Part shown: positions 11,703-48,854 of the stretch, piece by piece
Layout: each line of letters opens with the position of its first letter
How positions within the stretch are numbered: position 1 is the first letter of the stretch
Source: Pedosphaera sp.
Lineage (GTDB): Bacteria > Verrucomicrobiota > Verrucomicrobiia > Limisphaerales > UBA9464
Assembly: GCA_009695205.1 (NCBI GenBank)
Contig: SIBK01000002.1
Coordinates: forward strand, 6,153-70,152
Direction of reading: 5' to 3'
DNA: 64,000 bases
The notes under the pieces: model-generated
What the model was told of the DNA's origin: nothing
What the model saw: only the letters and a program-made list of their open reading frames with translations
The model's database searches: none
Program-made: the position numbers and the translations under genes

Positions 11703-13025
11703 ATGACTGGCCATTCGAAACGGACACTGGAGACATTGCGGAATTTTGAATCCCGCAACGTGACTTTCATAGATCCCGACGGCTCGTGGCCGATCGTCTG
11801 GGAGCGAGCTCAGGGAACATACGTATGGGACGCGGACGGCCGCCGGTATTTGGATCTCACGGCAGCCTTTGGTGTGGCGGCGGCCGGACACGCGAATCGG
11901 AGAGTGGTGCGCGCGGGGCAGCGGCAGATGCCGATCTTGTTGCATGCAATGGGGGATGTTCACCCGCACCCGTTGAAGGGGGAGTTGGCGAAGAGGCTTT
12001 CGGAGCTGACGTTTGGCCGTTGGACCGCCGGTTCGAGGCGGCCGACCCACGGAAAAGTCATCCTGGGCAATTCGGGATTTGAAGCGGTGGAAGCGGCTTT
12101 GAAGACCGCACGTCTCGCCACAGGCCGCCCGGGGGTGATTGCTTTCGAGGGTGGGTATCACGGGCTTGGCTATGGGGCGTTGAACACCACGCATCGGGGA
12201 CACTTTCGTGATCCGTTCCGTGATCAACTGCGCGAGTTTGGATTCTTCGTTCCTTTTCCGACAAACTCACCCCTACTCAAAGCCATGGACAAAAAGATCC
12301 GTCACTTGGCGATCAAGGGCCGGGTGGGGGCAATCCTGGTGGAACCAATCCAGGCGCGGGGTGGAATTCGGGTTCCCGTCCCGGGTTTCCTGAAACGTAT
12401 TCGGCAGCTGGCCGACGACCTCGGTTGTCTATTGATCCTCGACGAAATCTATACTGGGTTTGGACGAACGGGAAGCTGGTTCGCGACGGAGCATTCCGGG
12501 ATTGTTCCAGATCTCATCTGCCTGGGGAAGGGGTTAACCGGAGGATTCCCACTATCGGCGTGCGTTGGGCGTGCGGACCTCATGGATGAGGCCTGGCCGG
12601 AATCGACGGGTGAGGCCATCCATACGAGCACATTTCTTGGGCACCCCGTCGGCTGTGCGATGGCACTTGCTCAAATTGCGGAGATTCAGCGGAGAAATTT
12701 GGTCGGGCGCGCGCAGCATATCGGCGATTTTTTCCGGAGAGAACTTGTAGAAAAACTGGCCGGTGACTACGCGTGGGGCACTGCGCGAATCCCGGGGGTG
12801 GGACTTATGTTAGGTGTGGAACTGGTTGATCGACGAGACCGGCCCGCGACGGAGTTAGCCCTTCGATCGATGAAATCCATGTTGCAACGGGGATTCATAC
12901 TGCTGCCCGAAGGTGAACACGGGAACGTATTGGCATTGACCCCTCCGTTGACGATTTCACGGGTCGAGGTGAAATCCGCCATCAAGGCATTGTCCACGGT
13001 GCTGCGTGAATTGGAGGCGTCATGA
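11703..13025 (+). CDS. Class-III (PLP-dependent) aminotransferase, acetylornithine/GABA aminotransferase family
   Basis: WDADGRRYLDLTAAFGVAAAGH, LILDEIYTGFGRTGSWFA, and LGKGLTGGFP with the PLP lysine. The ATG at 11703 lies 2 nt after the queE stop; the longer 520-aa ORF start overlaps queE and is unlikely. Confidence 0.85.
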   Translation: MTGHSKRTLETLRNFESRNVTFIDPDGSWPIVWERAQGTYVWDADGRRYLDLTAAFGVAAAGHANRRVVRAGQRQMPILLHAMGDVHPHPLKGELAKRLSELTFGRWTAGSRRPTHGKVILGNSGFEAVEAALKTARLATGRPGVIAFEGGYHGLGYGALNTTHRGHFRDPFRDQLREFGFFVPFPTNSPLLKAMDKKIRHLAIKGRVGAILVEPIQARGGIRVPVPGFLKRIRQLADDLGCLLILDEIYTGFGRTGSWFATEHSGIVPDLICLGKGLTGGFPLSACVGRADLMDEAWPESTGEAIHTSTFLGHPVGCAMALAQIAEIQRRNLVGRAQHIGDFFRRELVEKLAGDYAWGTARIPGVGLMLGVELVDRRDRPATELALRSMKSMLQRGFILLPEGEHGNVLALTPPLTISRVEVKSAIKALSTVLRELEAS

Positions 13026-13846
13026 CCCTGACTGAAATGAAGCAGGTACTGCGGCAGCATGATCTCCGGCTAACGAAATCACTGGGTCAGAATTTTCTAC
13101 ATGATGGAAATCAGTTGCGGAAGATCGTGGCCGCAGCGGAGCTAAGGGCGGATGACACTGTGTTGGAGATCGGGCCTGGACTTGGGCCCTTGACGGAGTT
13201 GTTGTTGAAAGGTGCGGCGAAGGTGCTGGCAATCGAGAAGGATGCCCGGTTGGTTCCGCTCCTGCGCGAGCGCCTTTCGGCGGCGACTTCGCTGGAGTTG
13301 GTTGAGGCCGATGCTCTCGAGTGGCTGCGATCAGAACCTCGGAGTTGGGCCGGATGGAAGCTTGTGGCCAACCTCCCGTACTCTGTGGGATCCCCGATCC
13401 TAGTGGAACTTGCCCAGGCAAAGCAGCCACCGGACAGGCTTGTTGTGACCTTGCAATGGGAGGTGGTGCGTCGCATCAAGGCGGCTCCGGCAACCGATGA
13501 TTACGGACTCCTCACGCTGCTGCTCCAGCTTCGATACGAACCAACCGACTGGTTTCGGATCCCGGCCTCCTGCTTTTTTCCACCGCCCGACATCGATTCG
13601 GCCTGCGTGACGCTTGTACGACGGACTCGACCGTTCTTGGAGGCATCGCTGGAGAGCCGTTTTGAAAAGATAGTCCGAAGAGCCATCTCTCAGCGACGGA
13701 AGCAGATGTTCAAGCTCTTGCGAGAGGATTGGCCGGTTGAATTGCTCACGGACGGATTTCGGGCGGCGGCCATTCCACCGAACGTCCGTGCGGAATCGGT
13801 GTCGGTGGAGCAGTTCGCCCTTTTAACGAAATTCCTTGCGCGATGA
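13022..13846 (+). CDS. rsmA: 16S rRNA (adenine1518/1519-N6)-dimethyltransferase
   Basis: LTKSLGQNFLHD, VLEIGPGLGPLT, ANLPY. ATGA overlap with the upstream gene. Confidence 0.9.
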   Translation: MTLTEMKQVLRQHDLRLTKSLGQNFLHDGNQLRKIVAAAELRADDTVLEIGPGLGPLTELLLKGAAKVLAIEKDARLVPLLRERLSAATSLELVEADALEWLRSEPRSWAGWKLVANLPYSVGSPILVELAQAKQPPDRLVVTLQWEVVRRIKAAPATDDYGLLTLLLQLRYEPTDWFRIPASCFFPPPDIDSACVTLVRRTRPFLEASLESRFEKIVRRAISQRRKQMFKLLREDWPVELLTDGFRAAAIPPNVRAESVSVEQFALLTKFLAR

Positions 13847-13918
13847 TATTTCTCGACCCGCGGCTAGTGCAAAGATTGCTTTGACTGATTGCCGTCGGTG
13901 CGCTGGCATGTCCGCACC

Positions 13919-14797
13919 ATGAATTCTCATCTCCCCTTCGCGTTACTCTTGACCGCCGTCTTTGGGATCGGTGCGTCCGCGGCGCCAATTCCGGCTGACG
14001 CCCGTGTGGGTGGCTTTGCGATCGGCTGCCAGGCCTACAGTTTCAATCGATTTTCGGTGTTCGAAGCGATTGAGAAGACGGAATTGACGGGCTCCAAGGT
14101 CATTGAGTTTTACCCTGGGCAAAAGCTTTCACGGGAGGAACCTGGCGTAAAGTGGGACCACAACGCCAGCGATGAAGTGATCGCCCGGGTTAAAGAGAAG
14201 TTGGCGAAACATGGGGTTCGGGCCGTGAATTACGGAGTCGTCGAAATTCCCGCCGATGAGACGAAGGCGAGGGTGATCTTCGATTTTGCCCGGAAGATGG
14301 GGTTCTATGCCGTGACGACGGAGTCGACGGGTTCGCTCGATACGATTGAAAAAATGGTCCGAGAATTCGACATCCGCTGCGGATTTCATGAACACGCGCG
14401 TCAACCAAACAACCCTTCCTACCGTGTGTGGGACCCAAACTATGTGCGCGATCTTGTGAAGGATCGTGACGCAAGAATCGGAGCATGCGCCGATATAGGC
14501 CATTGGCAGACCTCGGGCATCAAGGCGATTGACGGATTGCGAATCTTGTCCGGACGTTTGATCAGTCTCCATGTAAAGGACCGGCTAGCCATCGGGCCCG
14601 GTCAGCACGATTGTATCTTTGGAACAGGCATCTCGGACATTGGTGGCGTTCTCTCGGAGCTCAAGCGCCAACGGTTCGAGGGAAACCTGTCAATCGAATA
14701 CGAATTCAACTGGGACAATTCAGTGGCGGACATAGCCCAGTGCGTGGGCTTCGTGCGTGGGTGGTCCGCCGGGCGTGAGTCGGGTGCACCGCAATGA
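13919..14797 (+). CDS. Sugar phosphate isomerase/epimerase (xylose isomerase-like TIM barrel) with signal peptide
   Basis: Signal-like N-terminus MNSHLPFALLLTAVFGIGASAAP; ...GFHEH..., ...DIGHW... and ...LHVKD... are metal-ligand strings typical of the family. Confidence 0.7.
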   Translation: MNSHLPFALLLTAVFGIGASAAPIPADARVGGFAIGCQAYSFNRFSVFEAIEKTELTGSKVIEFYPGQKLSREEPGVKWDHNASDEVIARVKEKLAKHGVRAVNYGVVEIPADETKARVIFDFARKMGFYAVTTESTGSLDTIEKMVREFDIRCGFHEHARQPNNPSYRVWDPNYVRDLVKDRDARIGACADIGHWQTSGIKAIDGLRILSGRLISLHVKDRLAIGPGQHDCIFGTGISDIGGVLSELKRQRFEGNLSIEYEFNWDNSVADIAQCVGFVRGWSAGRESGAPQ

Positions 14798-14931
14798 TTC
14801 GCAGAGCTTCGTAACCGGATTGGGACGATGAACTGCGAAGCGAGCGCCGAACGACGCCCGGCATTGACATCCGAATCCACATCCTGCCGGGCGCTTCCCA
14901 GTGTCCCGTTCGTGGACGATATTCACGCCGA

Positions 14932-15564
14932 ATGAACGCCAGGTTCGCGAGTGCGGCCGCGGTCTTCCTCGATCGCGATGGGACGCTCATTGTCGACAAG
15001 AGTTACCTCAGCAAACCTGAGGAAGTGGAGTTCATTCCAGGGACGATGGAAGGTCTCAAGAAACTCGTGTCGGCTGGATTTCGACTCGTGATGGTAACGA
15101 ATCAGTCCGGAGTTGGGCGCGGGTATTTTACCTTGGCGGATGTCGAGAAGGTGCATGCGCGCATGGCCGTGGAATTGAAGTCGATGGGTGTGCTGCTTGA
15201 GGCGGTATACGTGGCGCCGGAAGCCCCGGATCAGCCGAGCTGCGGGCGTAAACCATCGCCGCAGTTCTTGTTCGATGCCCGCGATGGGCTGGGACTCGAC
15301 CTCGATCGCTGTTACGTGGTGGGCGACAAGTGGCTGGATCTGGAGACGGGCTGGAATGCCGGCACTCGACGCAGTCTGCTGGTTAGGACGGGCCATGGGC
15401 GGCAGGTAGAGGCAGAAAATCGAGGCAATATGCGGGGTGCCGTGGTCGTGGACGATATGGGGGCGGCTGCGGAATGGATCCTTAGGGACGCCAAAAATGG
15501 GGTCAAAAATGAGGTTAAAACAGGGTCATCCGAAACAATTGGCAGTTGTGCTCCGAAAGCCTGA
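14932..15564 (+). CDS. gmhB: D-glycero-beta-D-manno-heptose-1,7-bisphosphate 7-phosphatase (HAD-IIIA)
   Basis: VFLDRDGTLIVD (DxDGT), VTNQSGVGRGYF, CGRKPSP, VVGDKWLDLETG. Confidence 0.8.
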   Translation: MNARFASAAAVFLDRDGTLIVDKSYLSKPEEVEFIPGTMEGLKKLVSAGFRLVMVTNQSGVGRGYFTLADVEKVHARMAVELKSMGVLLEAVYVAPEAPDQPSCGRKPSPQFLFDARDGLGLDLDRCYVVGDKWLDLETGWNAGTRRSLLVRTGHGRQVEAENRGNMRGAVVVDDMGAAAEWILRDAKNGVKNEVKTGSSETIGSCAPKA

Positions 15565-15839
15565 GCAGTAGAGATTACTCGTTCGTGTTTCGTTGGCAGG
15601 TGGACGTAGCAGCTGATCTGCGCATCCGCCCTGCCTTCGTGCCATCTTTCAATGTCAATCGAGAATCCGGAGAAATCCGATCTCCTCCGTGCCCGCATGG
15701 GTGGCTAGACGGAGTTCTTCGTCGCGCTGTTCTCCGCGCATCAGGCACACCATCAGCGCCGTCCCATCGACACTCCGGAACTCACTGCGGAAGCAGCCGC
15801 CCCAGCCGTTCCCGCAAAACCAAGGACAGAGAAATTATA

Positions 15840-17151
15840 AGCCAGCCGTCAGCCCTCGCTTACCTTGTAGAGTCGATTCCAAAGGGGCTCGAGGATCTTC
15901 GCGGTACGCCGAACGTTCAATATACTGAGAACGTTTTGGCACGCCTCACCCGCGCCGCCTGCCAAACCATCGACCTGACAGCGATGTACTGAAGTCTGCT
16001 GCCGGACTCGTCATCCCCGGATGAGAAGGGCTTCACCGCCGAACAATTCGCCGCCATGGGAGCGGGAACCGGAAGCGAACCTAATGGATGCGTTGCAGGA
16101 CGCGGCCAAGCGCGGCGTCCGGATTCGGATTCTTCAAAGTCCTGGATTCGGGGGCGCCAGGCAGGAGTCGGACGACCTTCATGCAAAGTTCCCGGAGACC
16201 GTATCTCTCCATCCCATTCAAATGGGGGACTGGTATGGCGGCAGCGGCATCATGCACCAGAAGATTTGGGTGTTCGATGGGCAGCACGTTTATCTCGGCT
16301 CCGCCAACATGGATTGGAAGTCCATCATGCAGGTCAAGGAGATGGGGGTTGCAGCGGAGAATTGCCCGGAGCTGGCCGCCGCCGTCACCCGCTACTTCAA
16401 AGGCTGGGTGGTCTTCAGATCACAAACGCCGGAAAGTGTTCCCGTCTTTGATGAAGAGGTGCGCATTTTCCGGGGGTCCCGCGTTGGTCGCCGTTGGTTC
16501 CTGCTGCCGCTCGGGCTCCATCGCCGCTAGCTGACAGCAGGTTTAGCACGCCATACAATCACGAGACCCCGTTGCAAACGGAGCTGAACGGAAAATCCGC
16601 CGGCATGTACCTTACCGGTTGTCCCATCGAAATTCTCGGAGGTGGACGTACCTACGACGGCGCCGGGCTCGTCGATACCCTCAATGATGCCCGGAAGTCG
16701 ATCTCCATTAGCGTCATGGACTTCGGCCCCATCAGCCTGTATTCCCGTTCCAACGTCGGAATTCCGGAACCGCTCACCGAGTTCTCCCCTGCAGATTCGC
16801 CCGTCTGGTGGCCTGCCATTTTCAGCGCGCTTGTCTCCGCGGCGCTTACCCGGCAAGTCTACGTGCGCTTGCTCGTAAGCAAGTGGGCCCACACCTCCGG
16901 CCTCATCGAGCCATTTCTTCGTGCTCTCCTAATGGCCGCGGATGCCGGCAGGGCGGGTCGGATTATGACCGCCGGCCAGCTCGAAATCAAAGAGTTCATT
17001 ATTCCCGGCTGGAACGATACAGCCGGTTCATTCCGTAAGTATCCCGGACACAGCCGTGTCAATCACACCAAGTATATCGTTACGGACCGGCGCATCAATA
17101 TCGGCACGTCCAACATGACTTGGGACTACTTCTCGTCCGCCGCGGCAGCAG
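15840..17151 (+). pseudogene. PLD3/PLD4/poxvirus-K4-type two-HKD phospholipase-D-superfamily gene, decayed
   Basis: Across three frames the pieces are collinear with the PLD3 layout: LVESIPKGL...IDLTAMY[TGA where W is expected, 15990-15992], DAAKRGVRIRILQS, HQKIWVFDGQHVYLGSANMDWKS (HKD1, from 16255), YNHETPLQTELNGKSAGMYLTGCP...GRTYD...ARKSISISVMDF, and RVNHTKYIVTDRRINIGTSNMTWDYF (HKD2, from 17064). At least two frameshifts (about 16000-16080 and about 16490-16530), and the 3' end is cut by the IS relic at 17152. The N-terminus is not resolvable. Confidence 0.8.
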
Positions 17152-17821
17152 TGCGGAGGCCGGGACCTAAACCGTGCAAAACGACCGGTCTGAAAACCGT
17201 ACAGTTTTCTTCATGGATTTTCTTCAAACACTTCAACAGATCTCTTCTTCCTTCTTCCTGGATCTTCTTTGCCTGACCCGGCGGCTTTGAGCGCTAACCC
17301 GCTCTGGGCCATGCCGCCGTGATGGCCGGACACACCGTACGATTTGCCGGTGCGGTCGATATTGTGAACACCCTCACCACGGCTCAACTGGAACATCAGC
17401 TCAAAGCCGAGATGAAGAAGTACTTACAGCCCTCAATATTGGTGGTCAATGAGCTGGGATATCTGCCGATCGACAAGAACGGCGCAGACCTTTTGTTCCA
17501 AGTGATTAGTCACCGTTACGAACAAGGTTCGCTGATCCTGACTACCAATCAGCCGTATAAATCTTGGGCTAAAGTGTTCAACAACGATGCCACGCTGGCA
17601 TCGGCGGTGCTCGATCGGCTATTGCATCACGCTGAGAACGTGATCATCGAAGGCAAGAGCTACCGGATGAAGGACCAGATCGAGAATCCCGAATAAAGAA
17701 GATCACACCTCGGCGGGGGCGGCGAACCTAGCGTCGCCCTCGCCCATCTCAGAAATACCCCTCAATCACTGTGCGGTTTTCAAATCGGCACTTTCACACG
17801 GTTTTCAGACCGTCCTCCGCA
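17152..17821 (+). mobile_element. Internally deleted IS21-family element (ends plus the 3' half of istB only)
   Basis: Termini are 5'-TGCGGAGG...CCTCCGCA-3'. About 53-nt imperfect inverted repeats (17152-17204 vs 17769-17821) match at 38 of the 54 positions I aligned by hand. GAAAACCG-type sub-repeats sit at both ends (17167-17174 degenerate, 17192-17199; reverse complement at 17774-17781 and 17799-17806). A perfect 15-mer, CGGTCTGAAAACCGT (17186-17200), recurs as its reverse complement at 17798-17812. No istA and no obvious target-site duplication. Confidence 0.75.
17319..17696 (+). pseudogene. istB: istB (IS21 helper ATPase) C-terminal fragment
   Basis: LVVNELGYLPIDKNGADLLFQVISHRYEQGSLILTTNQPYKSWAKVFNNDATLASAVLDRLLHHAENVIIEGKSYRMKD is the conserved IstB C-terminal half. 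The Walker A region is missing and stops lie immediately upstream. Confidence 0.85.
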
Positions 17822-17822
17822 T

Positions 17823-18194
17823 GTTTCCAAGGACGAAGACAAGAAGCACGAGACCGACTGGGTGATCGTCGCCGATATCAACCGGATTGATAGCTAGTTC
17901 AAGCGTGGCGGTGGCGGAATTGCGTTTCAGAACAAGGAGTTGGCACGGAGCCTGCACAGCATCATACAGATGATTCCACCGCCCGAGGATGAAGTTGTGA
18001 TTGAAGCGAACGCGAAGAAGGCGGAAGCGGCCCGTAAGGCGAAAGCGGACGCCAAGAAGTCTGGGACGGGGCCGGCTACGAAGGCGAAAAAATCTGCGCC
18101 TGGGCCTATGTCTGGCAGCAAAACCAGCGGAGTCAAGAAAACAGCCGTTGGAGCACGAACGGCTGTGGGTCAGCCAGGTAAGACAGCCCGATGA
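17823..18194 (+). pseudogene. Unidentified gene remnant ending in a Lys/Ala-rich tail (tentative)
   Basis: A single frame reads VSKDEDKKHETDWVIVADINRIDS[TAG 17895-17897]FKRGGGGIAFQNKELARSLHSIIQMIPPPEDEVVIEANAKKAEAARKAKADAKKSGTGPATKAKKSAPG... It has no credible start, begins at the IS boundary and carries an in-frame amber codon. Confidence 0.3.
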
Positions 18195-18288
18195 ACCTTC
18201 CGTTCTATCACATCAATAGCCTTTGAAGAAGATTCAGATTCCGGCTCGCCCTGAGGCCGGCTGAATCGAACATCGCTGGGGCCAACTC

Positions 18289-19136
18289 CTACCAAGTGAC
18301 CGTCAAGAATAGTGGCTGTGCGGGACTCGGCGGCGGCGGGGAATTCTTTACGTAAGTTGTCAATGTGTATTTGTTGCCTGCCGTGACCGGAAAGGTAGCG
18401 GTGAATGGCTGGCACGCCACCTGAGTTATACTTTTGACGGCGACCACTCGGCATTCGTAGGCGGCGATGTGAAACCGGACCCATCAGTGATCGTGCAACT
18501 CGTGGATCCCGCCGGAGCAGTCCAGGTCAAGAGGCCAGTGCTCGGGTCCCTGAAACTCGCATACGCCGTGTAAGGGCCGGGATATACCCCTGACGTCCCA
18601 TTCCCGAAGCGTGGAGGAGCGCTAACGGTCACGGATGAGACGACCCCGGCGGCGATCGATTTTTTATTCACCTGCACTTCCGCAAAACGCGAGCATACCT
18701 GGAGGTCGCCGCAGACCGCAATGCACTGGTAGAAACCAGTCGATGCAAAAGTGACATGGTCCACCTTTAGAGTAGTGCTGGTCTCGCCCGGCAAAAATGT
18801 AGACCCCTGAAACCATTGATATTGGATCGGATTACCGCAGTCGGGGAACTTCGCAACAGCTTTCAGTTCGAGTTTCTTAGTGAGCTCGATGGAGTAATCG
18901 ATTGGTGGCTCCGAAAAATAGGGTGTGCTGGGCGCCTCCGGCCCGGACGGACACAAAACGCTGATCACCGAATACGACATTGAGCTCTGAGTAGGCCCAC
19001 TTTGCCGATCTTATTCCATGGCTGAGTGATGTCGCGTTTGGTTTCGACCGAGACCGTCTGCCTACACCCGCCTCCCGCGATTGCAAGCAACACGAGGGCG
19101 ACGAATGAAAAGGCAGGGGAGGTGTTGAGTTTTCAT
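18289..19136 (-). pseudogene. Lipoprotein with Ig-like domains, frameshifted remnant
   Basis: The ATG at 19136 is followed, after a 1-nt shift at an A4 run (19130-19133), by a lipoprotein signal FSFVALVLLAIAGGGC. The 184-aa ORF (18980-18426) has an Ig-type motif (STGFYQCIAV). A third frame continues with RFHIAAYECRVVAVKSITQVACQPFTATFPVTAGNKYTLTTYVKN, up to the TAG at 18289-18291. Confidence 0.5.
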
Positions 19137-19373
19137 GTGAGTCTTTCTAGCGACTCCTACTACTAAGCTGGCTAACAGTTTCGACCGATTTATCCCGCAC
19201 GACTTGATGATGTAATGCGTAATCCCCATATTTCCGACTTCTTACCACGGCTAATTCATCTGGAATTAGGCAGGAGGCAATGCGACTGCGAGCGCTGACG
19301 GAATCTAAAGAAAGCAATGGGGTCAGATCTATCCATTGGACCTATTGGAAACGACACATGGAATTTGAGGAGG

Positions 19374-22300
19374 TCAGCTTTTCACGCGGCCTGCGTGGGA
19401 AGACAGGGTGAAGGAAACGCATCCGCGCTTACTGTTCCGCGCCCACCAGCGCAAATGGAGCCCAGTAGCGCGGGTGTGAATAGCGAGGGTTGGCGCGGAG
19501 TTCCCGCATCGCAGTCCGCAGGGCGTGGGCTTTGTCGACCCTTCCACCAGATAGAGGCGATAAAATGCCTGCATCACCGTGATGGTGGCATCGTCGTCGA
19601 TGCTCCATTGACTCACGAGAACCGACCGGGCTCCGGCAATTAAGAACGCCCGACTCAAGCCGATAAGCCCGTCGCCAACGATCTTGCCGAGTCCTGTCTG
19701 ACACGCACTCAACGTCACGAGATCCGCCCGGAGCGGCAGGGTGAGCACGCGTCGAGCGGATAGGCGATCACCACATGAGGACGGGGCCAACAAAACGAAT
19801 GATTCCAAAGGGTCGTCCGCACGTGTGATTCCGTGCGTGGCCAAGTGAAAAATGCTGTAATGCGGAGCGTTTGTAACCACGGTCGCCAGGTCGGCAGATT
19901 TTCCAAGGAGCAGGGTGTGGTTGCTGGGCGAGAAGAACCGGTACACGATTTCAGCCTCCTTCTCAGCCCCTGGGAGCGGGTCAAAGCCAAAGCGGAATCG
20001 ATCGTTGTCGTTTGGACGCACTGCCGCAGGGATCGGATTGGCGATGATGAGGGCATTCCGGACCTTCTTTCTTGATGGGACATCCTCCGAGCGGACTTTC
20101 TCGAGCAGCGCTGCCGACGGCGCGTACAGTAGAGCGGCGCGGTCCGCGAGGCATTGGCCATCCTCCGCGATCAGAGCTGCGAATGGGAGCAACCAGAGGG
20201 CGCCATGAGGTTCGAGAGCCAGCAATGCTCCATCGCGGGGCAGCGCGTGATCCAGCGGTGCGATCAATAGCCGGTGGAGTCTCCGAAGCAAATCCTCGGG
20301 TGATTTTGCGCCGTCGGGTCCTGGCGCCGTTGACGCAGAGGGCTCCCGGCGCACACCGCGTGCCGCCCGGTCGACGTCAAGCGCGGCGCGGAGTTCCGCG
20401 ACGTCGTGCTCAATCTGAGGGCGCGAAATTTGAGCTACATGGCCCGTCACGGAGCCATCCGTAGAGATCGCGAACACGGCGGTCCGATCGGGAAGCCCAT
20501 AAAACACCAGACGCGCCACCGGAGGTGGAATCGATCGCGATCGCGCCGCGCCATCCGCAACCGGAACGATTGTTCCCCGCGGAACGGCAGCCGCGTTGGG
20601 GAAAGCAGGAGCGTTGGGGGGCAGCAAGAGCAGAGGCCCTTGACCAACGGGGGTTCCCGGAGCGGTCTGGCTCGGATCGAGCGTTGCGGCGGTCCGCCCC
20701 TTTGGGAACGTTGCGCCCTCGAGGCCACGGGGTGGCCAGCAACTCACTAACCCGAGCGCTTCCTCGGATGGACGCGCGTTTCGTCCCCAGCCCTGCATGA
20801 TATCCTTCAACGCCCGCCCACGCGCGTCCTCCGCCACCCCGAGCGGCGTGATCGAGATGCACCTCGATCAGCTGATCCACCACGTCCTGAGTTGTCTGGA
20901 GAAATGCAACTTTTCCCTCATCGGTACGCAAGTCGCGCTGTCGTGAGCCGATATAAACCAGACTTTGTTCGAGCGCCTCCGCCGCTTGCGCAAGCTTCCC
21001 GACGCGCTTGTGACACTGCCCAAGGCCCCAATAAACCAACCAGAGCGCCTCATGATCGTTTGCCCTTTTGCACAGTTCCAGCGCGCGCTCAAAGGATCTC
21101 CTGGCGCTCGGCACATCCCCGAGTTCCAGATCCAGACGCCCGAGCCCTGCGTACGCGCGACCTTCACCGAGCGCATCGTCGGCGCGTGCGGAAAGCACAA
21201 GGGCTTCGACATACAGGCTTCGCGCCTCGGTGGTGTGACCCCGGTCGCGTCGGATTCCGGCAAGCAGGGTCAGAGCACGGCGCTTCTCGAGCGGGTCGGC
21301 GTGCTGCTCCAAAAGCACGATGGCCTGAGCGAGCACGGGCTCCGCCGCGGCCGCATTGCCGGTTCGCCTCAGGATTTCACCGCTGTTCGCGAGCGCGTAC
21401 GCCTTGAGTTTGGGAGCCCGCTCGATCTCGGGGCGCGCCAAGGCCTGTTGATAGGCGTTCAGCGCCGGTCCGTCCTGCGGCTGGCGTAGGTAGGCATTAC
21501 CGATTTGTATCAGGATTCTTACCGCGAGGGCGGCATCCGCCTCGGCGGCCGCGAGCTCGCGCTCGGTTGCAGCGTCATAAACATCGGCCGGGGCGGAGCG
21601 TTCGCTCGGGATGAAGTCCTTGCGCACCGCGGCCAATTGGTTGAGCACCTCGCTCAAATTAAGGCGAGAGTCGCGCGCCAGCGCCCGGAAGCCGGACTCA
21701 TACGCGAGAACCGCATCCTGCACCCGGTTGTCCGCCTGCAAGACCTGGCCGAGACCGCTGCACAATACGGCCGTCAGTCGCGGCCGGTTCAGAGATCGTG
21801 CCTTTTCGATCGCCTGCTGCCGCGCGATGATCGACTCCCGAACCCGCCTAGCCGCCTCAGCCGCGGACGCGGAATGTTCGAGGGCCACGAACAACTCGGC
21901 ATCCTTGCCCTCCAGCTCCAGTGGCGTCGCGGAGACTCGCGGCACCGTTCCATCCCCGTCGAACGTTTCGCCGGGAAAGGTGGTGGAGAGCTCCACTTTG
22001 CCGTTCACGAGCCGTGCGGCCTGGAGCGTTGGTTGGTAGGTTCCAACTACGGGATGGAGGGTGTACCGATTTCTGAGGTACGCGTCATCGCGCTGGTGCG
22101 TTTCCACTCCGGCGTCGATCTCATGATGAAACGCGAGCGCGTTCTTCGCTTTCTCCGGATCAACATGGGGAATGCCCCGGGTTTCACCCACGCGCAACAA
22201 CTTGCCGTCGCCGGCGTCGTAGCACGGGTAACGTGGCAGCAACTGATAGACGGAAGTGAACGAGCGCAGGAGCTGGGAGAGGTCGACCAAATCGAGCGAA

Positions 22301-22964
22301 CCGACGCCGGCTGGGCAGCCATTGCTGAGAAAATTGAGAGCGTTCGGCGCACTGCGATACGGCGTGCCGAAGGTGATCAGCCTGTGCGTATCGCGCCAGC
22401 CGTCGAGGCACTCGATGAAGTAGCGCGACAGCAGCCCACCCATCGAGTGCGCCAACAACACGAGTTTCGCATCTGGGTTGCCCGAGCGGGCACGCCAGAG
22501 CTTGAGCCAAACCCGGTTCAGACGCGCCAGGCGCCGGGCGGCGACGCGATTGTCTCGCCGCCAATCGTAGGGAAACTCGAAGAAGTTCACACCGGCCTCG
22601 ACCTCGAACTCGCGCACGATATGGTTTCGAATCTTGCTGTAACCGTCGATCTTCCACAACCCGGGGAGTAGATGAACATCGTCGAACAGGCGGTCCGCAG
22701 TGATGCCATCGCCCGGGTCATCGACGTCGAAAGGATCCCGCGTCAGCTTGAGCGCTTCAAGGCTATGTCCCAGGGTTCTGAGAGCGCCCACACATCCCGG
22801 TCAGCCTTGCGCAAAACACTGCCACCGATGCCGGGAAGCAGTACGATAACGTCCTTCATGGGCTTGCGCGCGTCCGCGCGCGATGCGAGCGGCGTGAGAG
22901 CCAGCCCCGCGGTGATGCCGCCTGCGGCTGCCAGAAAACACCTCCGGTTTAGACTTATCTTCAT
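19374..22964 (-). pseudogene. Tat-signal / LCAT-like alpha-beta-hydrolase lipase / TPR array / CHAT protease gene, interrupted by two frameshifts
   Basis: Frame 1 (22964-22743): MKISLNRRCFLAAAGGITAGLALTPLASRADA...VIVLLPGIGGSV. Frame 2 (22791-20410): LLAHSMGGL, FDGDGTVPRVSA, then TPR-like repeats. Frame 3 (20837-19374): FHLATHGI...LVTLSACQTGLG...SVLVSQWSIDD (CHAT). The joins fall at G runs near 22787-22790 and 20837-20840. Confidence 0.75.
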
Positions 22965-23162
22965 AGGGTTCGATGGGCTCGAGTTCGTAACGGCGGCGGA
23001 AGGACGAAGGAAGAGGAGGGGGGAGACTCACATTGGCTCGTGATGAATCTGCTGATGCGCTGCGGCGATGAAGCGTTTGAAGCGCGGTTTCTTCACAAAG
23101 CCTTTGTGGCCAATATGTCAGATGGATAGACCGGACCCCATTGCCTCCCGGGCTGCCGAATT

Positions 23163-24098
23163 CTATCGCCTGCCCATTTTTTCACGGGCTGCTTCGAGTA
23201 TTTTTCGCTCGCGGTCGGTGAGGCTTTGGAGGCCGTGAGCGGCGATCTTTTCGAGGATAGGATCAACCTCGCGGGCAATAAAATCAGCCTCCGAGTGTTC
23301 GATCTGAGTGGGTGCTGGGGAGGTGGTCCAGCGAACCCCGGCGAGTGTTACAGCGGGGACGGGAGGCGAAGGTTTCAACTGGCCGCGTGAGTTTTCACCC
23401 GGAAGTACCCGCAAGTCGGGTCTTCTAAATTTTTCGCGAAGCCAAGTCCAAGGAGTTGCGGCGAATTCGTGGTGCCAGCCGAACTTCACCCATGCAATTC
23501 CAGCGAGGAGCCCCCCGAGGTGGGCACCATCCGCGACACCCATGTTGCGAGGAGACGGAACCAATATAAAGAACAGCGAGATCCCCAGCAGGATCCACAG
23601 AAACGTGATCGCCCGCATGGGAAAGATAAAATTCAGCCGGATAACAGTGTCCCGCTCCAGGAGGGCGAAGATGGCAATCAAACCGGCGACCCCAGCGGAG
23701 GCGCCGACTACCGCTGAGCCGTAAACCGTCGGAAACGCCTGCATCAGGGCTCCTTGAAATAACCCGCCGACCAGTCCGCACCCAAAGAACGCCACGAGCA
23801 TGCGCGTGGCGCCCATCACATTTTCCGCGTAACGGCCTACCCACCAGAAGGTAAGGACATTGCACAGGATGTGGATGAGGTTGCCGTGGAGAACTTGGAA
23901 AGAAATCAGCTGCCAGTACCAGTGGCGACGCAATCCGTAGTCCGTGAGGGCGAAGAGCGATTGTGCATCGGAGTGCACGTAGGCGTCGTCAATGCACTGA
24001 AGGGCGAAAACGGCAGCGAGGCCAATCGTTAGAACGGCCGTTGCGGTGATCGGAGGGCGGTAACCCGGCTCCCTCATGTATGGGCGGTCTGCCAGCAT
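23163..24098 (-). CDS. Rhomboid-family intramembrane serine protease with cytoplasmic C-terminal extension
   Basis: HGNLIHILCNVLTFWWVG, GASAGVAGLI (catalytic Ser), GAHLGGLLAG (catalytic His). The C-terminal tail is ...FIAREVDPILEKIAAHGLQSLTDRERKILEAA. I chose the ATG at 24098 to avoid a 47-nt overlap with the upstream gene. Confidence 0.8.
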   Translation of the reverse strand: MLADRPYMREPGYRPPITATAVLTIGLAAVFALQCIDDAYVHSDAQSLFALTDYGLRRHWYWQLISFQVLHGNLIHILCNVLTFWWVGRYAENVMGATRMLVAFFGCGLVGGLFQGALMQAFPTVYGSAVVGASAGVAGLIAIFALLERDTVIRLNFIFPMRAITFLWILLGISLFFILVPSPRNMGVADGAHLGGLLAGIAWVKFGWHHEFAATPWTWLREKFRRPDLRVLPGENSRGQLKPSPPVPAVTLAGVRWTTSPAPTQIEHSEADFIAREVDPILEKIAAHGLQSLTDRERKILEAAREKMGRR

Positions 24099-24180
24099 CG
24101 GGGAGTAACCTATCAGGAATTCTCGGAATTCAAAACCATCCTCGTGTGAGCGGAGTAGAATTAATGAGTACGCATGAGTT

Positions 24181-24870
24181 TCAGGCTCGGTTGACGGGAT
24201 TGCTGGGAGGGACGCTCGGGTCGTCACCGATTTCGAGCAGTTGCTGGGGTTTCAGCCAGTTTACGCACCAGAGACCGCCAACCAACCCCCCTAGGTGGGC
24301 GAGATGTGCCACGTTTCCCAGCGGAAAAATCACGCCGCCAATGCTGATCAATCCCGCTGCCAGCAGGAGGTACTTTGCCTTCAGTGTCACCGGGATAACG
24401 AAAAGGATGCGCGCCTGGATCCGATCCTCGGCGTATATCGCACCGAGCGCAGCGAGCAAACCGCAGAGGCCTGCCGATGCTCCGACAACCGGGTGGCCAA
24501 AGTATTTCTGGGACAAGGCGCCACCCAGGAGTTGGACCAGTCCGCCGAGGGCTCCGCTGACAAGGTAAAGAACCAGAAAGCGCCACCGTCCGAGCGTCGT
24601 CTCGAGAACAGGGCCGATTGAATCAAGGAACAAGATGTTCAAAATCAGGTGCGCGAATCCACCGTGCAGAAACTGGTAGGTGAGAAACTGCCACCAAGCT
24701 CCCGCTCGAACTCCCGCCAAACTCAACGCGAATTGCCGGCCGAATTCGTACTCCGCGCCTGGCGCAAGCCGGGCTTCATGGATGTAGACCATGAGGTTGA
24801 GCGCCACGAGGGCAAACGTGGCACTCCGCTGGATTGTCACCATTTCAGGCAGTGGGGCGGCGTCCGCCAT
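24181..24870 (-). CDS. Rhomboid-family intramembrane serine protease (short form)
   Basis: WWQFLTYQFLHGGFAHLILNILFL, GASAGLCGLLAA, AHLAHLGGLVGG. Confidence 0.8.
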   Translation of the reverse strand: MADAAPLPEMVTIQRSATFALVALNLMVYIHEARLAPGAEYEFGRQFALSLAGVRAGAWWQFLTYQFLHGGFAHLILNILFLDSIGPVLETTLGRWRFLVLYLVSGALGGLVQLLGGALSQKYFGHPVVGASAGLCGLLAALGAIYAEDRIQARILFVIPVTLKAKYLLLAAGLISIGGVIFPLGNVAHLAHLGGLVGGLWCVNWLKPQQLLEIGDDPSVPPSNPVNRA

Positions 24871-24961
24871 GCGCCGAGATTACCCCCCCCGCCGCCGAGC
24901 GCCAGCGTATCCATCGAGTCGGTTCGGCCGGATGGGTCCGCTTTAACCACCGAGTTTGGAG

Positions 24962-26692
24962 TCAGCCGAGGTTACCGATCTCGCCACGGACGTGCTCTAC
25001 CAGGGGGCCGAGTGTCTCGCGTGAGAAATCAAAACGGCAGCCCGCCCGCAAGAACAACTCTGGAAGCGGCCGGGAACCCCCCAACGCGAGGCCCGCTTTG
25101 TAGTCGCTCAAAGCCTTGCTGGGATCCTTCCGGAAATTAGCCCAGACCTGCAGCGCTCCCATCTGGGCAATGCCATACTCCACATAATAAAACGGGTAGA
25201 GAAAGATGTGCAGCTGCTTATGCCAAAGGTGGGTTCGTGTCGATTCGCAGCCGGACCAGTCGGTGTTTCCCCCAAAACGGTCGAAAATTCGGTTCCATGC
25301 TCCCGCACGTTCGGAACGGCTGTGGCCCGGATGAGTATATACCCAATGCTGAAATGCATCGACAGTGGCAATCCAGGGAAACCCCTCGAGGATGCCTTCG
25401 AGATGACCCCGGCGGGCCCGTGCGCTATCGGTCGCCGAGTAAAAAACATCGAGGTGGTCGTCCGCCAGAAGTTCCATGGCCATGGAGGCGACTTCGCAGA
25501 ACTCAATGGGCGCACTGCGGTAGGCGAAAAGATCTTCATCCCGCGTGGCGAGCGCGTGGAACGCGTGACCCGCTTCGTGCAAAATAGTCTCAATGTCCCG
25601 TCGCACACCGACGGCATTCATGAAGATGAACGGCATGCGCGCTTCGGCGAGGGTGGTTTGGTATCCTCCCGGCGCCTTCCCCTTGCGGTTTGCGAGATCG
25701 AGGAGCCGCAGGTGACGCAGGATTCCGAACTGCCCCCCCAGGTCCGTATCGAGTCGATCGAACAGTGTCTGAGTCATCGTTTCCATTTGGGAAACATCGC
25801 TGAAGGGGCGAAGCGGCGGACGGTTCAGGGGATCCACAGCGAGATCCCACGGTCGGAGCCGTTCGATCTTCAACCGTCGCGCCCGTTCGGCCTGGAGATG
25901 ACGGACAACGGGCATCACTTCCGTCTCGATCGACTGGTGAAACTGTTCGCAATCCCCCGGCGTGTAGTCAAACCGCCCTTTCGAACGAAACGAATAGTCG
26001 CGGTAGTTAGTGAATCCAGCATTGAGAGCAATTTGATGACGCAGTTTCACGAGCTGATCGAACAAATCTTCGAAGCGATCCTGCTCTCGTAAGCGGCATT
26101 CCGCGACGAGGCGCCACGCTTCCTCCCGAATTGCACGGTCGGTTTCCTCCTGATATCGGCTCATCGCCACCAGCGTCTTTTCCTCGCCGCGATAAGAAAC
26201 GGTCAAAGATCCTGACAACTTGTTGTAGTCATTTCCGATCCGTGCGTCCTGGGTTTCGAGGGCGATGTTTTCCTCGCGGAACAGTTCCACTCGAAGGGCT
26301 GTTTCACGGTGGAAGACTTCATACCGGTGGCGCGGAAGCTGGTTGCAGAGCGGATGTTCAAGATACCGCCGGGCAAGTTCAAACTGTCTCGGTTTCAGGC
26401 GAGGTTCAATTTCCTCCACAAAGTGAAGATATGCCTTCTCGGCGTCCGGGTTGTCCGTGTGGCATGTCATTGCGATGTGACGTTTCGCCCCTTCTTCCTC
26501 CGCCGCAGCGGAGAGTTCCCCCCAATCGAGAATCCATTGTTCGAACTGCTGCACGGTGCGCGCCTCTCCGGCCCGCGCGTCCAGACAATCGAACAAAGGA
26601 GCCAGTTGCGACCACTCACCAAGATCGGTCTCTGCAGGGATTAGATTTCGGGCGCGGTATGGCGGTAGATTTTTAAATGGCAGCAGCGACAT
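24962..26692 (-). CDS. pepF: M3B oligoendopeptidase F family metallopeptidase
   Basis: Zinc motif TILHEAGHAFH; size and collinearity are typical of PepF. Confidence 0.85.
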   Translation of the reverse strand: MSLLPFKNLPPYRARNLIPAETDLGEWSQLAPLFDCLDARAGEARTVQQFEQWILDWGELSAAAEEEGAKRHIAMTCHTDNPDAEKAYLHFVEEIEPRLKPRQFELARRYLEHPLCNQLPRHRYEVFHRETALRVELFREENIALETQDARIGNDYNKLSGSLTVSYRGEEKTLVAMSRYQEETDRAIREEAWRLVAECRLREQDRFEDLFDQLVKLRHQIALNAGFTNYRDYSFRSKGRFDYTPGDCEQFHQSIETEVMPVVRHLQAERARRLKIERLRPWDLAVDPLNRPPLRPFSDVSQMETMTQTLFDRLDTDLGGQFGILRHLRLLDLANRKGKAPGGYQTTLAEARMPFIFMNAVGVRRDIETILHEAGHAFHALATRDEDLFAYRSAPIEFCEVASMAMELLADDHLDVFYSATDSARARRGHLEGILEGFPWIATVDAFQHWVYTHPGHSRSERAGAWNRIFDRFGGNTDWSGCESTRTHLWHKQLHIFLYPFYYVEYGIAQMGALQVWANFRKDPSKALSDYKAGLALGGSRPLPELFLRAGCRFDFSRETLGPLVEHVRGEIGNLG

Positions 26693-26897
26693 CCGGTGGA
26701 CGATGGCGGCGAGTCAGGCTGCATCCAAGCCACATTTTGCTCGTTCTCATTCCACCTCATTTGCGTAAACGTGAGTTCTGAAGAACATGAAATGCAAGGT
26801 GGCGGTGCGCGGGGGGTGACGCCCGGGGGCACGGCTCCGCGACGTCAATTGTCCGGGAATGCCTGACATCCGGCTCGGTTTATGCTACCACTTTCAG

Positions 26898-29855
26898 ATG
26901 AAAATACCCCTGGCACTGGGAATTCCCTGGCTGCGGCTGGCATTCTGCCTGATCGGCGCATCCGTTTGCCGTGGCGACGACGCATCCCTTATCCGGGTCA
27001 GTGATATGTGGCAGTACTTTTATGGTGTGACCGAACCGACGCCCTTACCCCGCGCCTGGGCTCAGCCCGGCTTTGTGCCGGGGTCCGAATGGCAGTCGGG
27101 TCCATCCGGATTCGGTGGACCCTACGGGTCCCGTTCGGGGGAGGCGACGCCGATCATTGATCGCGACTATAATTTCGTGTCTGTTTACTTTCGCCGGGAA
27201 TTTGTGGTGGACGATCCCGCTTCAATACAGTGGTTGATTCTGCGGTTACAGGTGCAGGAGGGCTTTGTCGCCTACCTGAATGGCCGGGAGATTTCCAGGA
27301 GTGGTTTCGCGTCCGGACCCGAAGACTTTGTTCCGTTTGATACGACAGCCAAGGTCAATAGTTTTCCTGCTCCATTGGATCGAGATATTTCCTTGCACCG
27401 TGGACTCCTGCACTCCGGCACCAATATTCTCGCGGTTCAGGTGCATTCCTCCGATATCGTGGCCGGGTTCCCTCTCTTGCGAAACGGGGGCAATTTGCTC
27501 TTTCTGGCCGAGTTGCTGGCGAATTTCAATCGAGGGCCCTTCGTGCAAAACATGGCCGCGCATCAGGTTCAGGTACTGTGGAAGACTCCGGTGCCGGCAT
27601 CCGGCGCAGTGGAATTTGGGACGACAACGAATCTCGGACAGCAGGTGGTCCTCACCAATAATGTGACCGATCAGAGGCCGCTGCTGGAGGGCCTGCTGCC
27701 CGCAACACGATACTACTACCGTGTGAGAAGCCGCGCCGGAACCAATGAAGCGGTTTCGGAGATGAGCAGCTTCCGCACGTTTGGAACACACGGCCCGCTC
27801 AGTTTCTCCGTCTTTGGGGATTCGGGCGGCGGTAATGTCAATCAGTTCGCCATTGCCAAACGAATTTTGGAAAGTGGTGCGGACTTCGTCCTGCACACCG
27901 GCGACATTGTTTATAACTCCTTCTCAACATGGTTTGAGGACACGCGGTGCCTCAGCGTCTACCGCCCGCACATGCGGACCATACCGTATTTCTTTTGTGC
28001 GGGGAATCATGACGTGGTAGCAGAGAATGGACTCGCGTTTGTGGAGACATTTGCCCAACCCACCAACGATGTGTCCCTCGCGGAGCATTTGTTGGACGGC
28101 ACCTCACCGCGACACTTCTATTCCTTCGACGCCGGGGATGTTCACTTTGTCGCGCTCTATAATCCGTGGTTTTACTATTATCAGTTTACCACTAACTCCT
28201 CGCAATACCGGTGGCTTGAACGCGATCTGGCGGCCACTCAAAAGCCCTGGAAGGTCGTCTTTCAACATATTCCATTCCAGACCTCCGGCCCTCATTATAC
28301 GGATCGTTCCGGAGGGCCGCCGGCTCTCTATGATTGGCAACGGCTTCAAGAGACGCTCGTTCCGCTCCTCGCTCGGCATGGCGTCCAGCTGTTTTTCAAT
28401 GGGCATGAGCATTTTTATGAGCGGTTTACCCCATTCGCGGGAATTCAGGGAATTACGACCGGTGCAGGAGGGGTTGATCTCTATAATGTTTATACGAGGT
28501 TCCCCAGCAGCTCACAGCTATTCCTCGACTATCACTATGTGAAGGTGGATATCGATGGACCGGAAGCTCGGATTCGCGCGGTGAATGCCGCGGGTGACCT
28601 GTTGGATGAATTCCAGGTCCGCCGCGAGCCGGCCTCTCGAAAGACCTATGCCGCTGCCTGGGAATCTCCAACCGTGGAAACAAGCGGACTTCAGAATCCC
28701 ACCGGCAACCTGGCGGGTCAGACCTTTGATTTTGCGGGAGAATCCGCGCCGGCGTTGGCGGGGAATTGGGCGAACCTTGGCCGACTGCGTGTGGCGGTTG
28801 ATGAGACCAATTTATACTTAGGACTTGAGCACTCGCTCGTGCCGGCCGGGGCAGACGTCATTATGTTTCTCGAAGTCCCAGGCCTGGCCGGAGTCCGCAC
28901 ACTCGCCGGTCTCGGCAATGGCAAAGTTGATCCGGCGGGGCAGGGAGTGGATGCCCTCGATGCTCTCGAGAATCTTTCGTTCGCCAACTTCCATCCCTCC
29001 GTGGCAGTGGTAGGAGGCGATGAGTTCGCTGATGAGAACCTTCGCGCATTTCAACGGCCGGCCGCGAGTTGGCCCATGGGCCAGGGCGTGTTCCGACTCG
29101 ATGCCGATTTGTCGTCGATCGCTCAGGCGCGAATTCAGCAATTTGACCGGTCACCTCAAACTGATCTTTCCCGAGGCGAACACAATGCCGATTTCATCGA
29201 GATCTCCATACCCCGAAGTCAGTTGGGCAATCTGCAGGTTGATGACGCAATTCAGGTTGCTGCGATTGCCGTATTTGGGCCCTCGGAATCAAACGTTCTC
29301 TCCCGTTGGATTGATCCCGGATTTATTGGTACGCAGATGAACGGATCCGGCAGAAATCCGGTGATGCTGAATGGACTCTTGTTCCAGCTGCCAGGGGATC
29401 CCGATCTCGACCACGATGGTGTGTCAAACAAGGACGAAATCGCACTGGAAACAAATCCAAACAACCCGGATACGGATGGCGACGGATTGGGGGAGAAGTG
29501 GGAGATTCTTCATGGGCTTGATCCGAAGTCTGGGGTTGGTCGGGACGGAGGGGATGGCGACTGGGACGGTGACAGGATGAATAATCGCAATGAATTTCTG
29601 TTTGGAACGGATCCACGGAGCGCGGCGTCGACCCTGCGAATAACGTCGATCCGCCGTGTCGGTGACACACTGCGGTTAAAATGGCCTGCGCCGCCGGGCG
29701 CACGCCTTATCCTCGAGTCTTCGGGGCAGATAGAAGGCGGTTATGCGCCGGACAAATCCGTTCTGTCGGTATTGCCTAACACAGGCAATGAACAAACCGT
29801 CGAGCTTGTACCCGATGGCGCCGCGCGATTTTTCCGTCTGCGATTGGAGCAATGA
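26898..29855 (+). CDS. Exported purple-acid-phosphatase-like metallophosphoesterase with thrombospondin-type-3-like Ca-binding repeats
   Basis: Signal peptide MKIPLALGIPWLRLAFCLIGASVC. An FN3-like PAP N-domain (VQVLWKTPVPASGAVEFGTT...RYYYRVRS). Metallophos motifs FGDSGGG, HTGDIVYN, GNHD, GHEHFYER. The C-terminal repeats are DPDLDHDGVSNKDE...NPDTDGDGLGEKWE...DWDGDRMNNRNE. An alternative ATG lies at 26859. Confidence 0.75.
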   Translation: MKIPLALGIPWLRLAFCLIGASVCRGDDASLIRVSDMWQYFYGVTEPTPLPRAWAQPGFVPGSEWQSGPSGFGGPYGSRSGEATPIIDRDYNFVSVYFRREFVVDDPASIQWLILRLQVQEGFVAYLNGREISRSGFASGPEDFVPFDTTAKVNSFPAPLDRDISLHRGLLHSGTNILAVQVHSSDIVAGFPLLRNGGNLLFLAELLANFNRGPFVQNMAAHQVQVLWKTPVPASGAVEFGTTTNLGQQVVLTNNVTDQRPLLEGLLPATRYYYRVRSRAGTNEAVSEMSSFRTFGTHGPLSFSVFGDSGGGNVNQFAIAKRILESGADFVLHTGDIVYNSFSTWFEDTRCLSVYRPHMRTIPYFFCAGNHDVVAENGLAFVETFAQPTNDVSLAEHLLDGTSPRHFYSFDAGDVHFVALYNPWFYYYQFTTNSSQYRWLERDLAATQKPWKVVFQHIPFQTSGPHYTDRSGGPPALYDWQRLQETLVPLLARHGVQLFFNGHEHFYERFTPFAGIQGITTGAGGVDLYNVYTRFPSSSQLFLDYHYVKVDIDGPEARIRAVNAAGDLLDEFQVRREPASRKTYAAAWESPTVETSGLQNPTGNLAGQTFDFAGESAPALAGNWANLGRLRVAVDETNLYLGLEHSLVPAGADVIMFLEVPGLAGVRTLAGLGNGKVDPAGQGVDALDALENLSFANFHPSVAVVGGDEFADENLRAFQRPAASWPMGQGVFRLDADLSSIAQARIQQFDRSPQTDLSRGEHNADFIEISIPRSQLGNLQVDDAIQVAAIAVFGPSESNVLSRWIDPGFIGTQMNGSGRNPVMLNGLLFQLPGDPDLDHDGVSNKDEIALETNPNNPDTDGDGLGEKWEILHGLDPKSGVGRDGGDGDWDGDRMNNRNEFLFGTDPRSAASTLRITSIRRVGDTLRLKWPAPPGARLILESSGQIEGGYAPDKSVLSVLPNTGNEQTVELVPDGAARFFRLRLEQ

Positions 29856-39354: not shown

Positions 39355-39430
39355 TGGTGGAGCCGACAGGATTCGAACCTGCGACATCCACAATGCCATT
39401 GTGGCGCTCTACCAACTGAGCTACGACCCC
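39355..39430 (-). tRNA. tRNA-Ala (anticodon GGC), CCA encoded
   Basis: The reverse complement is GGGGTCGTAGCTCAGTTGGTAGAGCGCCACAATGGCATTGTGGATGTCGCAGGTTCGAATCCTGTCGGCTCCACCA. It folds by hand into a cloverleaf with anticodon loop AUGGCAU and carries the G3:U70 Ala identity pair. Confidence 0.9.
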
Positions 39431-48821: not shown

Positions 48822-48854
48822 CGCCGTGTGACGTGAACGGGTGGGTGTCGGGTC

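Follow-up and report, generated by a model that had tools for sequence, protein, structure and literature searches.

What is a stretch of more than 7 kb that contains no intact gene, and how did it come to lie between two housekeeping genes? The question is raised by a locus in Pedosphaera sp. (assembly GCA_009695205.1, contig SIBK01000002.1), of which 64,000 nucleotides were analysed (positions 6,153 to 70,152 of the contig, referred to below as the window). The original prediction, made from the letters of the sequence, described five consecutive decayed loci around a relic of an IS21-family insertion sequence (IS) and took them for an old island of foreign DNA eroding in place. All five loci were found where they had been noted, each of them disrupted. 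Our analysis leads us to propose, with a probability of roughly 0.85, that the region is a 7.67-kb block of horizontally acquired DNA, mosaic in content, in which every gene has been inactivated and which is decaying in place.

The block was delimited by a blastn search with window positions 13000-27000 as the query against L002 and L003, two metagenome-assembled genomes (MAGs) of species-level relatives which are the nearest ones found via the gmhB-like protein and which are 79-84% identical to the window at the nucleotide level; farther matches of this protein belong to Limisphaerales and Verrucomicrobiales MAGs. On the left, a colinear match to both genomes extends over rsmA, a xylose-isomerase-like gene and gmhB, and stops at 15488/15490. 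On the right, the match restarts at 23157/23158 and spans both rhomboid genes and the M3 peptidase gene. In the relatives, gmhB is followed directly by the rhomboid gene, and since the two homology blocks are separated there by a spacer of only 40 bp (L002) or 154 bp (L003), the 7669 bp of 15489-23157, which run from the gmhB-like gene to rhomboid gene 1 and contain no intact gene, are absent from both. The site occupied by the block is thus the 3'-3' spacer between two convergent genes, and its placement between gmhB on the left and the rhomboids on the right, as originally proposed, could be fixed by these breakpoints.

15489 to 23157, unstranded: inserted block of 7669 bp, lineage-specific as judged from the blastn breakpoints against L002 and L003
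15489 to 15564, plus strand: C-terminal tail of the gmhB-like open reading frame (ORF), read from inserted DNA and marking the left junction of the block (six-relative comparison, NCBIfam)

L002 and L003 are 88% identical to each other and each is about 81% identical to the window, i.e., they are sisters, and because of this an outgroup is needed to tell which state is ancestral. Alternatively, the block could be an ancestral feature that the common ancestor of L002 and L003 lost through a clean deletion: formally, a single deletion is no less parsimonious than a single insertion, and the farther genomes lack the synteny. The end of gmhB makes this scenario improbable. In 6 of 6 relatives, including four outgroups at 60-65% protein identity, gmhB ends 4-6 codons past the EWIL motif, while in the window it runs 26 codons past EWIL, to 15564, and is about 21 codons longer; by residue 186 of 210, the NCBIfam GmhB profile has been matched to its end. 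In 15489-15564 the native stop is displaced and the inserted DNA is read through. As the short end is common to all six relatives, the long tail must be derived, which favours an insertion in the lineage of the window. A simple deletion in the relatives also agrees poorly with what the block holds, namely an IS, a gene of outlying composition and genes whose best homologues are found in other phyla. Judged from these alignments, the block is a lineage-specific insertion, and the foreign nature of this DNA, suspected at first from its base composition, is now indicated by the empty site in the two relatives and by the gmhB tail.

The block contains five decayed loci and a pair of repeat arms:

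15837 to 17150, plus strand: PLD3/4-like pseudogene (Pfam, intact homologues, tblastn)
17152 to 17821, plus strand: internally deleted IS21-family element of 670 bp (terminal inverted repeats, Pfam and NCBIfam IstB)
17822 to 18194, plus strand: 3'-terminal part of a DNase II-family gene, including a tail rich in Lys and Ala (match to protein P0241, PF03265)
18289 to 19136, minus strand: remnant of an immunoglobulin (Ig)-like secreted protein or lipoprotein (six-frame translation, weak Pfam matches, codon-score frame plot)
19314 to 19348, unstranded: left arm of a 35-nt inverted repeat (30 of 35 positions complementary)
19429 to 22964, minus strand: pseudogene of a Tat-signal (twin-arginine) lipase (LCAT-like)-TPR-CHAT protein (Pfam LCAT, TPR and CHAT over several ORFs, translation, tblastn)
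23110 to 23144, unstranded: right arm of this repeat, which ends 13 nt short of the right block boundary

In the first locus, Pfam recognizes PLDc_2 and PLDc in the ORF 16021-16530 and PLDc_3, PLDc_2 and PLDc in the ORF 16494-17276, and the repaired translation matches, over its own whole length, hundreds of intact "phospholipase D3/4" proteins of 460-480 aa at 63-69% identity. Mapping by tblastn with three intact homologues (465-470 aa, up to 69% identity) showed that the gene is read in frame 3 (15840-16076), then in frame 1 (16075-16473) and again in frame 3 (16455-17150), the switches lying near 16075 and at 16455-16473. A nonsense codon, TGA at 15990-15992, stands where the homologues have the conserved Trp of ...TAMYW... 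The homologues begin 5-10 codons upstream of AYLVESIP; the window reads ATT ATA there (15834-15839, with ATA at 15837), no canonical start codon is present at the homologues' start position, and the start of the gene is apparently lost. At the other end, 17150 is the last matching position, although the homologues continue for about 30 residues, and the missing tail was not found anywhere in the window. The locus thus resembles bacterial PLD3/4-like proteins (PLD superfamily; PF13918, PF13091, PF00614) in its identity of up to 69% along the full length and in both HKD motifs (two HxK), which are still readable, but differs from the intact proteins in its broken frame, with one stop and two shifts, in the lost C-terminus and in the apparently lost start. 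The reading of TGA as Trp under an alternative genetic code was considered and rejected: standard stops terminate other genes of the window, which match profiles over their full length, and a second gene is interrupted as well, in this case by TAG.

The broken end of the PLD gene is adjoined by the IS21 relic. Elements of the IS21 family, which encode the IstA transposase and the IstB helper ATPase, are bounded by long, imperfect inverted repeats in which sub-terminal motifs recur. The relic has terminal inverted repeats of 54 nt (17152-17205 and 17768-17821, 74% complementary) with TG...CA ends, and its arms contain repeated CTGAAAACCGT-like motifs and a perfect 15-nt repeat inside. Its coding remnant is limited to the 3' half of istB (17319-17696), which matches Pfam IstB_IS21 with 135 bits (positions 119-236 of 238) and the NCBIfam IS21 helper ATPase with 139 bits (positions 116-231 of 232); the latter score is below the full-length cutoff because istB is truncated. 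The relic therefore shares with the family the IstB homology, the termini and the long inverted repeats, and differs from it in lacking istA, the N-terminal half of istB with its Walker A region, and a target-site duplication. The approximately 110 nt between the left inverted repeat and the istB fragment hold neither an ORF nor a domain, and the 8-nt flanks, GGCAGCAG and TGTTTCCA, are unlike. No further copies of IS21 or IstB were found in the window or in the corresponding L002 and L003 loci.

The flanks of the relic belong to different genes, with the PLD gene, cut at about codon 437, on the left and the DNase II-family remnant on the right. Together with the missing target-site duplication, this points to an IS-associated deletion or recombination rather than to a simple insertion. 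The remnant on the right, noted at first as an unidentified one with an in-frame TAG, is a decayed locus whose identity can now be proposed. Its frame begins precisely at the right end of the IS, where position 17822 reads VSKDEDKKHETDWVIVADINRIDS, a stop, and FKRGGGGIAFQNKELARSLHSII..., and its Lys/Ala-rich tail ends at 18194. It is 53% identical over 84% of the query to protein P0241, which itself matches the DNase II profile (PF03265) at positions 232-320, and it matches PF03265 directly at positions 283-322 of 326 with 27.2 bits (cutoff 23). The last approximately 50 residues of the domain are present; the full domain is not. The nonsense codon, TAG at 17895-17897, stands where P0241 has Gln, i.e., a change of CAG to TAG. 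By these two matches the remnant is the 3' end of a DNase II-family gene, cut at the end of the IS and carrying a nonsense codon. A conserved pairing of PLD and DNase II genes was examined as well and rejected since the pairing was not seen beside intact PLD homologues.

The Ig-like locus on the opposite strand starts with an ATG at 19136-19134 followed by a run of four A, and a signal-peptide-like stretch, ending in ...LLAIAGGGC (...FVALVLLAIAGGGC), is one base out of frame with this ATG. The Ig-like domain, for which the Pfam matches Ig_3 and Ig_2 are weak, lies in an ORF of 184 aa (18980-18426), and a beta-rich tail in another frame ends at 18289, so that the locus is spread over three or four frames. 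The same succession of frames is seen, weakly, in the codon-score frame plot. This internal evidence argues for a gene that has likely decayed.

The largest locus encodes three domains that are broken into four frame segments. Its N-terminus has a twin-arginine motif, NRRCFL. The tblastn matches of the lipase-CHAT proteins P0003 and P0063 are in frame -1 at 22862-22779 and then in frame -3 at 22800-21868, and those of the TPR-CHAT protein P0002 are in frame -3 at 21888-20845 and then in frame -1 from 20843, skipping ten P0002 residues; the final 35 residues of P0002 are matched in frame -3 at 19536-19432. The order of frames is accordingly -1, -3, -1, -3, with three switches (at about 22779-22800, at 20843-20845 and at 19536-19540), and the true stop is at 19431-19429. 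The CHAT domain scores 195.7 bits at profile positions 2-247 of 289 in one ORF, the remainder being in another frame. The homology to lipase-CHAT proteins stops, and that to the mature N-terminus of P0002 starts, within 21868-21888, about 20 nt apart. The 793-aa ORF at 20410-22791 is identical to NCBI entry MSU33643.1, annotated as "tetratricopeptide repeat protein", which as a matter of annotation hygiene is a misleading name for a pseudogene fragment whose last approximately 140 residues are an out-of-frame translation.

The lipase domain is 55-58% identical to that of lipase-CHAT proteins of about 975 aa, and the TPR-CHAT part is 53% identical to P0002, a protein of 884 aa. No intact close homologue of the whole gene, above 58% identity, was found except for the window's own fragment, and the combination of lipase, TPR and CHAT occurs in 0 of the 120 best matches besides this fragment. 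The gene differs from the known LCAT-like lipase-CHAT and TPR-CHAT proteins in that it joins all three domains, and its make-up suggests a domain fusion that predated the decay. A role in a known anti-phage defence system was rejected: PADLOC returned a generic TPR match and weak DrmC matches that reflect the generic PLD fold. A search of the literature on lipase-TPR-CHAT proteins gave nothing useful.

The 35-nt arms bracket this gene at a distance of 3.8 kb from each other. The repeat extends no further and is present in two copies in the 64 kb; by our own estimate, so good an inverted repeat would be expected by chance in the region with a frequency of about 2e-6. The arms carry a dispersed motif, GTCAAATGGATAGATCTGACCCCATTGC, of which a 28-nt core recurs in three unrelated metagenome contigs:

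L014, 2731-2758, 2941-2968 and 3017-3044: copies of GTCAAATGGATAGATCTGACCCCATTGC outside the window
L015, 151-178: one copy
L016, 2484-2511: one copy

In L014, an inverted pair of the motif, 182 nt apart, forms a unit of 238 bp that resembles a miniature inverted-repeat transposable element (MITE) or a repetitive extragenic palindrome (REP) and lies downstream of an RHS-like ORF. Between L014 and L015 there is full identity as far as the motif, and immediately beyond it the two contigs diverge. The window arms share the 28-nt core with these dispersed repeats but are unlike MITEs and REP-like repeats in that they are 3.8 kb apart and enclose a gene, without a transposase or a target-site duplication and in two copies only. 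No second copy carrying cargo was found. The two arms may mark the termini of a non-autonomous element or else represent two copies of a REP-like repeat. That the lipase-TPR-CHAT gene came as cargo of an undescribed non-autonomous element, with its 35-nt ends belonging to a MITE/REP-like family of Pedosphaerales-type genomes, is a doubtful proposition which we mention tentatively.

Does the composition of the block agree with a foreign origin? Guanine-plus-cytosine (GC) content and tetranucleotide usage of each segment were compared with windows of equal size outside the block. The window as a whole has about 58% GC, and the whole block, with 59.2%, is slightly above its mean. By segment, the values are as follows:

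PLD locus, 58.9% GC: typical
IS21 relic, 52.8% GC
Core at 17.3-19.4 kb, 54.3% GC: outside mean 58.0%, standard deviation 1.7, with 2.5% of outside windows as low
CHAT gene, 63.0% GC: outside maximum 60.2%

The tetranucleotide distance of the CHAT segment (0.0238) exceeds the outside maximum (0.0158, among 197 outside windows), that of the core is marginal (3.9% of outside windows are as extreme), and that of the PLD part is typical. The AT-rich core, from which a foreign origin was originally argued, is thus real but mild and is not the best evidence of such an origin; the hand counts of 25-29 against 33-43 G+C per 60-nt line overstated the difference, the measured means being 32.4 and 34.8. 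Other dips in GC content, at 6500-8500 and 48500-50000 (51.7-54%), match or exceed that of the core in depth. Taken together, the segments make the block a compositional mosaic, which probably arose through more than one acquisition.

It is possible to imagine that some function has been retained, either by the 184-aa Ig ORF, or by split PLD and CHAT polypeptides, or by frames restored through slippage, as in phase variation or programmed frameshifting. The catalytic motifs are indeed readable (the two HxK in PLD, GHSMGG in the lipase, His and Cys motifs in CHAT), some of the shifts occur in short runs of G or A, and the 184-aa ORF begins with an ATG, and other pipelines predicted it as a gene. 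Yet every large gene has accumulated at least three lesions that are independent and differ in direction, besides being truncated or interrupted by a nonsense codon; the signal peptide of the Ig ORF is in another frame, the istB fragment has no N-terminal half, and the genetic code is standard elsewhere in the window. We regard retained function as very unlikely, and the block as DNA that would have lost its function under relaxed selection.

The lesions are reproduced in other assemblies. The Logan contig L013 (SRR8561391) is 100% identical to 17709-20304 of the window without gaps. The Logan contig L021 covers 22510-26261 and is identical over 22510-23162; the differences, at a poly-C/G tract at about 24883-24890 and a single-nucleotide polymorphism at 24149, are both outside the block. 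Three contigs of ENA ERZ1305449 together span rsmA, the block and pepF, and the genes called on them are the same fragments as in the window: PLD pieces of 148 and 223 aa, an IstB piece of 124 aa, the Ig piece of 184 aa and CHAT pieces that end at the same stops, with a 73-aa N-terminal piece also called. The block has at least eight frameshifts and two nonsense codons in 7.7 kb, and none was detected in the other 56 kb, where ORFs tile the window with unassigned gaps below 1 kb and sampled genes match full profiles (e.g., ThiG, 2-247 of 247). A uniformly spread error could not concentrate ten or more lesions in the 7.7 kb and leave the 56 kb without any. The lesions are also of mixed types, comprising TGG to TGA, CAG to TAG, an indel outside a homopolymer at about 16075, indels in G-runs and the switch at 20843-20845 with its gap of ten residues relative to P0002. 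The idea that the frameshifts and stops are sequencing or assembly errors of a MAG and that the genes are intact in the organism is scarcely credible. In its favour, several of the indels fall within runs of G (G5 at about 16465; GGG/GGGG at about 22787, 20840 and 19538), and a poly-C/G tract elsewhere varies between assemblies (8 versus 10). Against it, the same sequence or the same fragment ORFs recur in the Logan and ENA data; the TGA and the TAG are base substitutions; one indel is outside a homopolymer; the 3' end of the PLD gene and the greater part of the DNase II gene are physically missing; and no broken gene was found in the remaining 56 kb.

Several observations weigh against a horizontally acquired and decaying block. 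The polarity of the event relies on one sister clade, L002 and L003, plus the gmhB tail, as the farther relatives do not share the synteny. A Pfam profile search found no integrase domain in the block, a repeat search found no direct repeats flanking it, and no tRNA gene adjoins it, the only one in the window being at 39355. An exhaustive HMMER search found no full-length orthologue of the Ig-like protein, the matches being to Ig repeats of giant proteins. In composition, the PLD part is unremarkable, the mild core is a weak argument, and the per-codon coding score of the block fragments is within or near the host range; codon usage gives no indication of a foreign block. Finally, the reads behind the Logan and ENA assemblies may be the same ones or sibling sets, which leaves a formal place for read-level error.

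The reading that we prefer, an acquired block undergoing decay, would involve the following steps. Horizontally acquired DNA of 7.67 kb would have entered the 3'-3' spacer of the convergent gmhB-like and rhomboid genes, bringing, probably in several separate acquisitions, the PLD3/4-like gene, the DNase II-like gene, the gene of the Ig-like secreted protein and the GC-rich gene of the secreted lipase-TPR-CHAT protein within its 35-nt inverted repeat. An IS21-family element would then have inserted into the block, and an IS-associated rearrangement or deletion would have removed the 3' end of the PLD gene and most of the DNase II gene, the element itself losing istA and half of istB. All remaining frames have gained nonsense substitutions and small indels. 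The sole lasting effect on the host appears to be the gmhB tail, which makes this gene about 21 codons longer than in the relatives. Erosion in place is supported by these data; that the island is old, as was also proposed, does not follow from them, as the lesions per gene are few and the motifs are still readable.

A few observations concern the surroundings of the block. At 23163-24870 there are two tandem rhomboid-family paralogues, an arrangement that L002 and L003 share; the overlap of their ORFs amounts to 47 nt when each is taken from its first start codon. The tract at 24883-24890, 13-20 nt upstream of the start of the second rhomboid gene, is C8 (G8 on the coding strand) in the window and G10 in Logan SRR8561391, which is either population length variation or homopolymer noise. 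A search for known RNA families at the block boundaries found nothing relevant, and a promoter and terminator scan gave sites no more numerous than in shuffled sequence.

Acquired DNA in decay is a known type, and the case described here is an ordinary one that opens no long-standing question. What is added is the identity of the DNase II remnant, the exact boundaries of the block, the gmhB tail and the repeat-bracketed CHAT gene. The locus exemplifies how acquired DNA in a permissive convergent spacer may decay, through point mutations and small indels combined with the insertion of an IS and the deletion associated with it, leaving a housekeeping gene, gmhB, with a new C-terminal tail. The block is best compared to the degraded genomic islets with pseudogenes and an IS remnant that occur widely in bacterial genomes. 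It shares with them the absence from close relatives, the remnant of a mobile element, a partly atypical composition and accessory-type genes (secreted hydrolases and nucleases) broken by frameshifts, stops and IS-associated deletion. Unlike typical islets, it is without an integrase and without tRNA or direct-repeat boundaries, it occupies a convergent 3'-3' spacer, and, small as it is (7.7 kb), it is apparently non-functional throughout and a mosaic of more than one acquisition.

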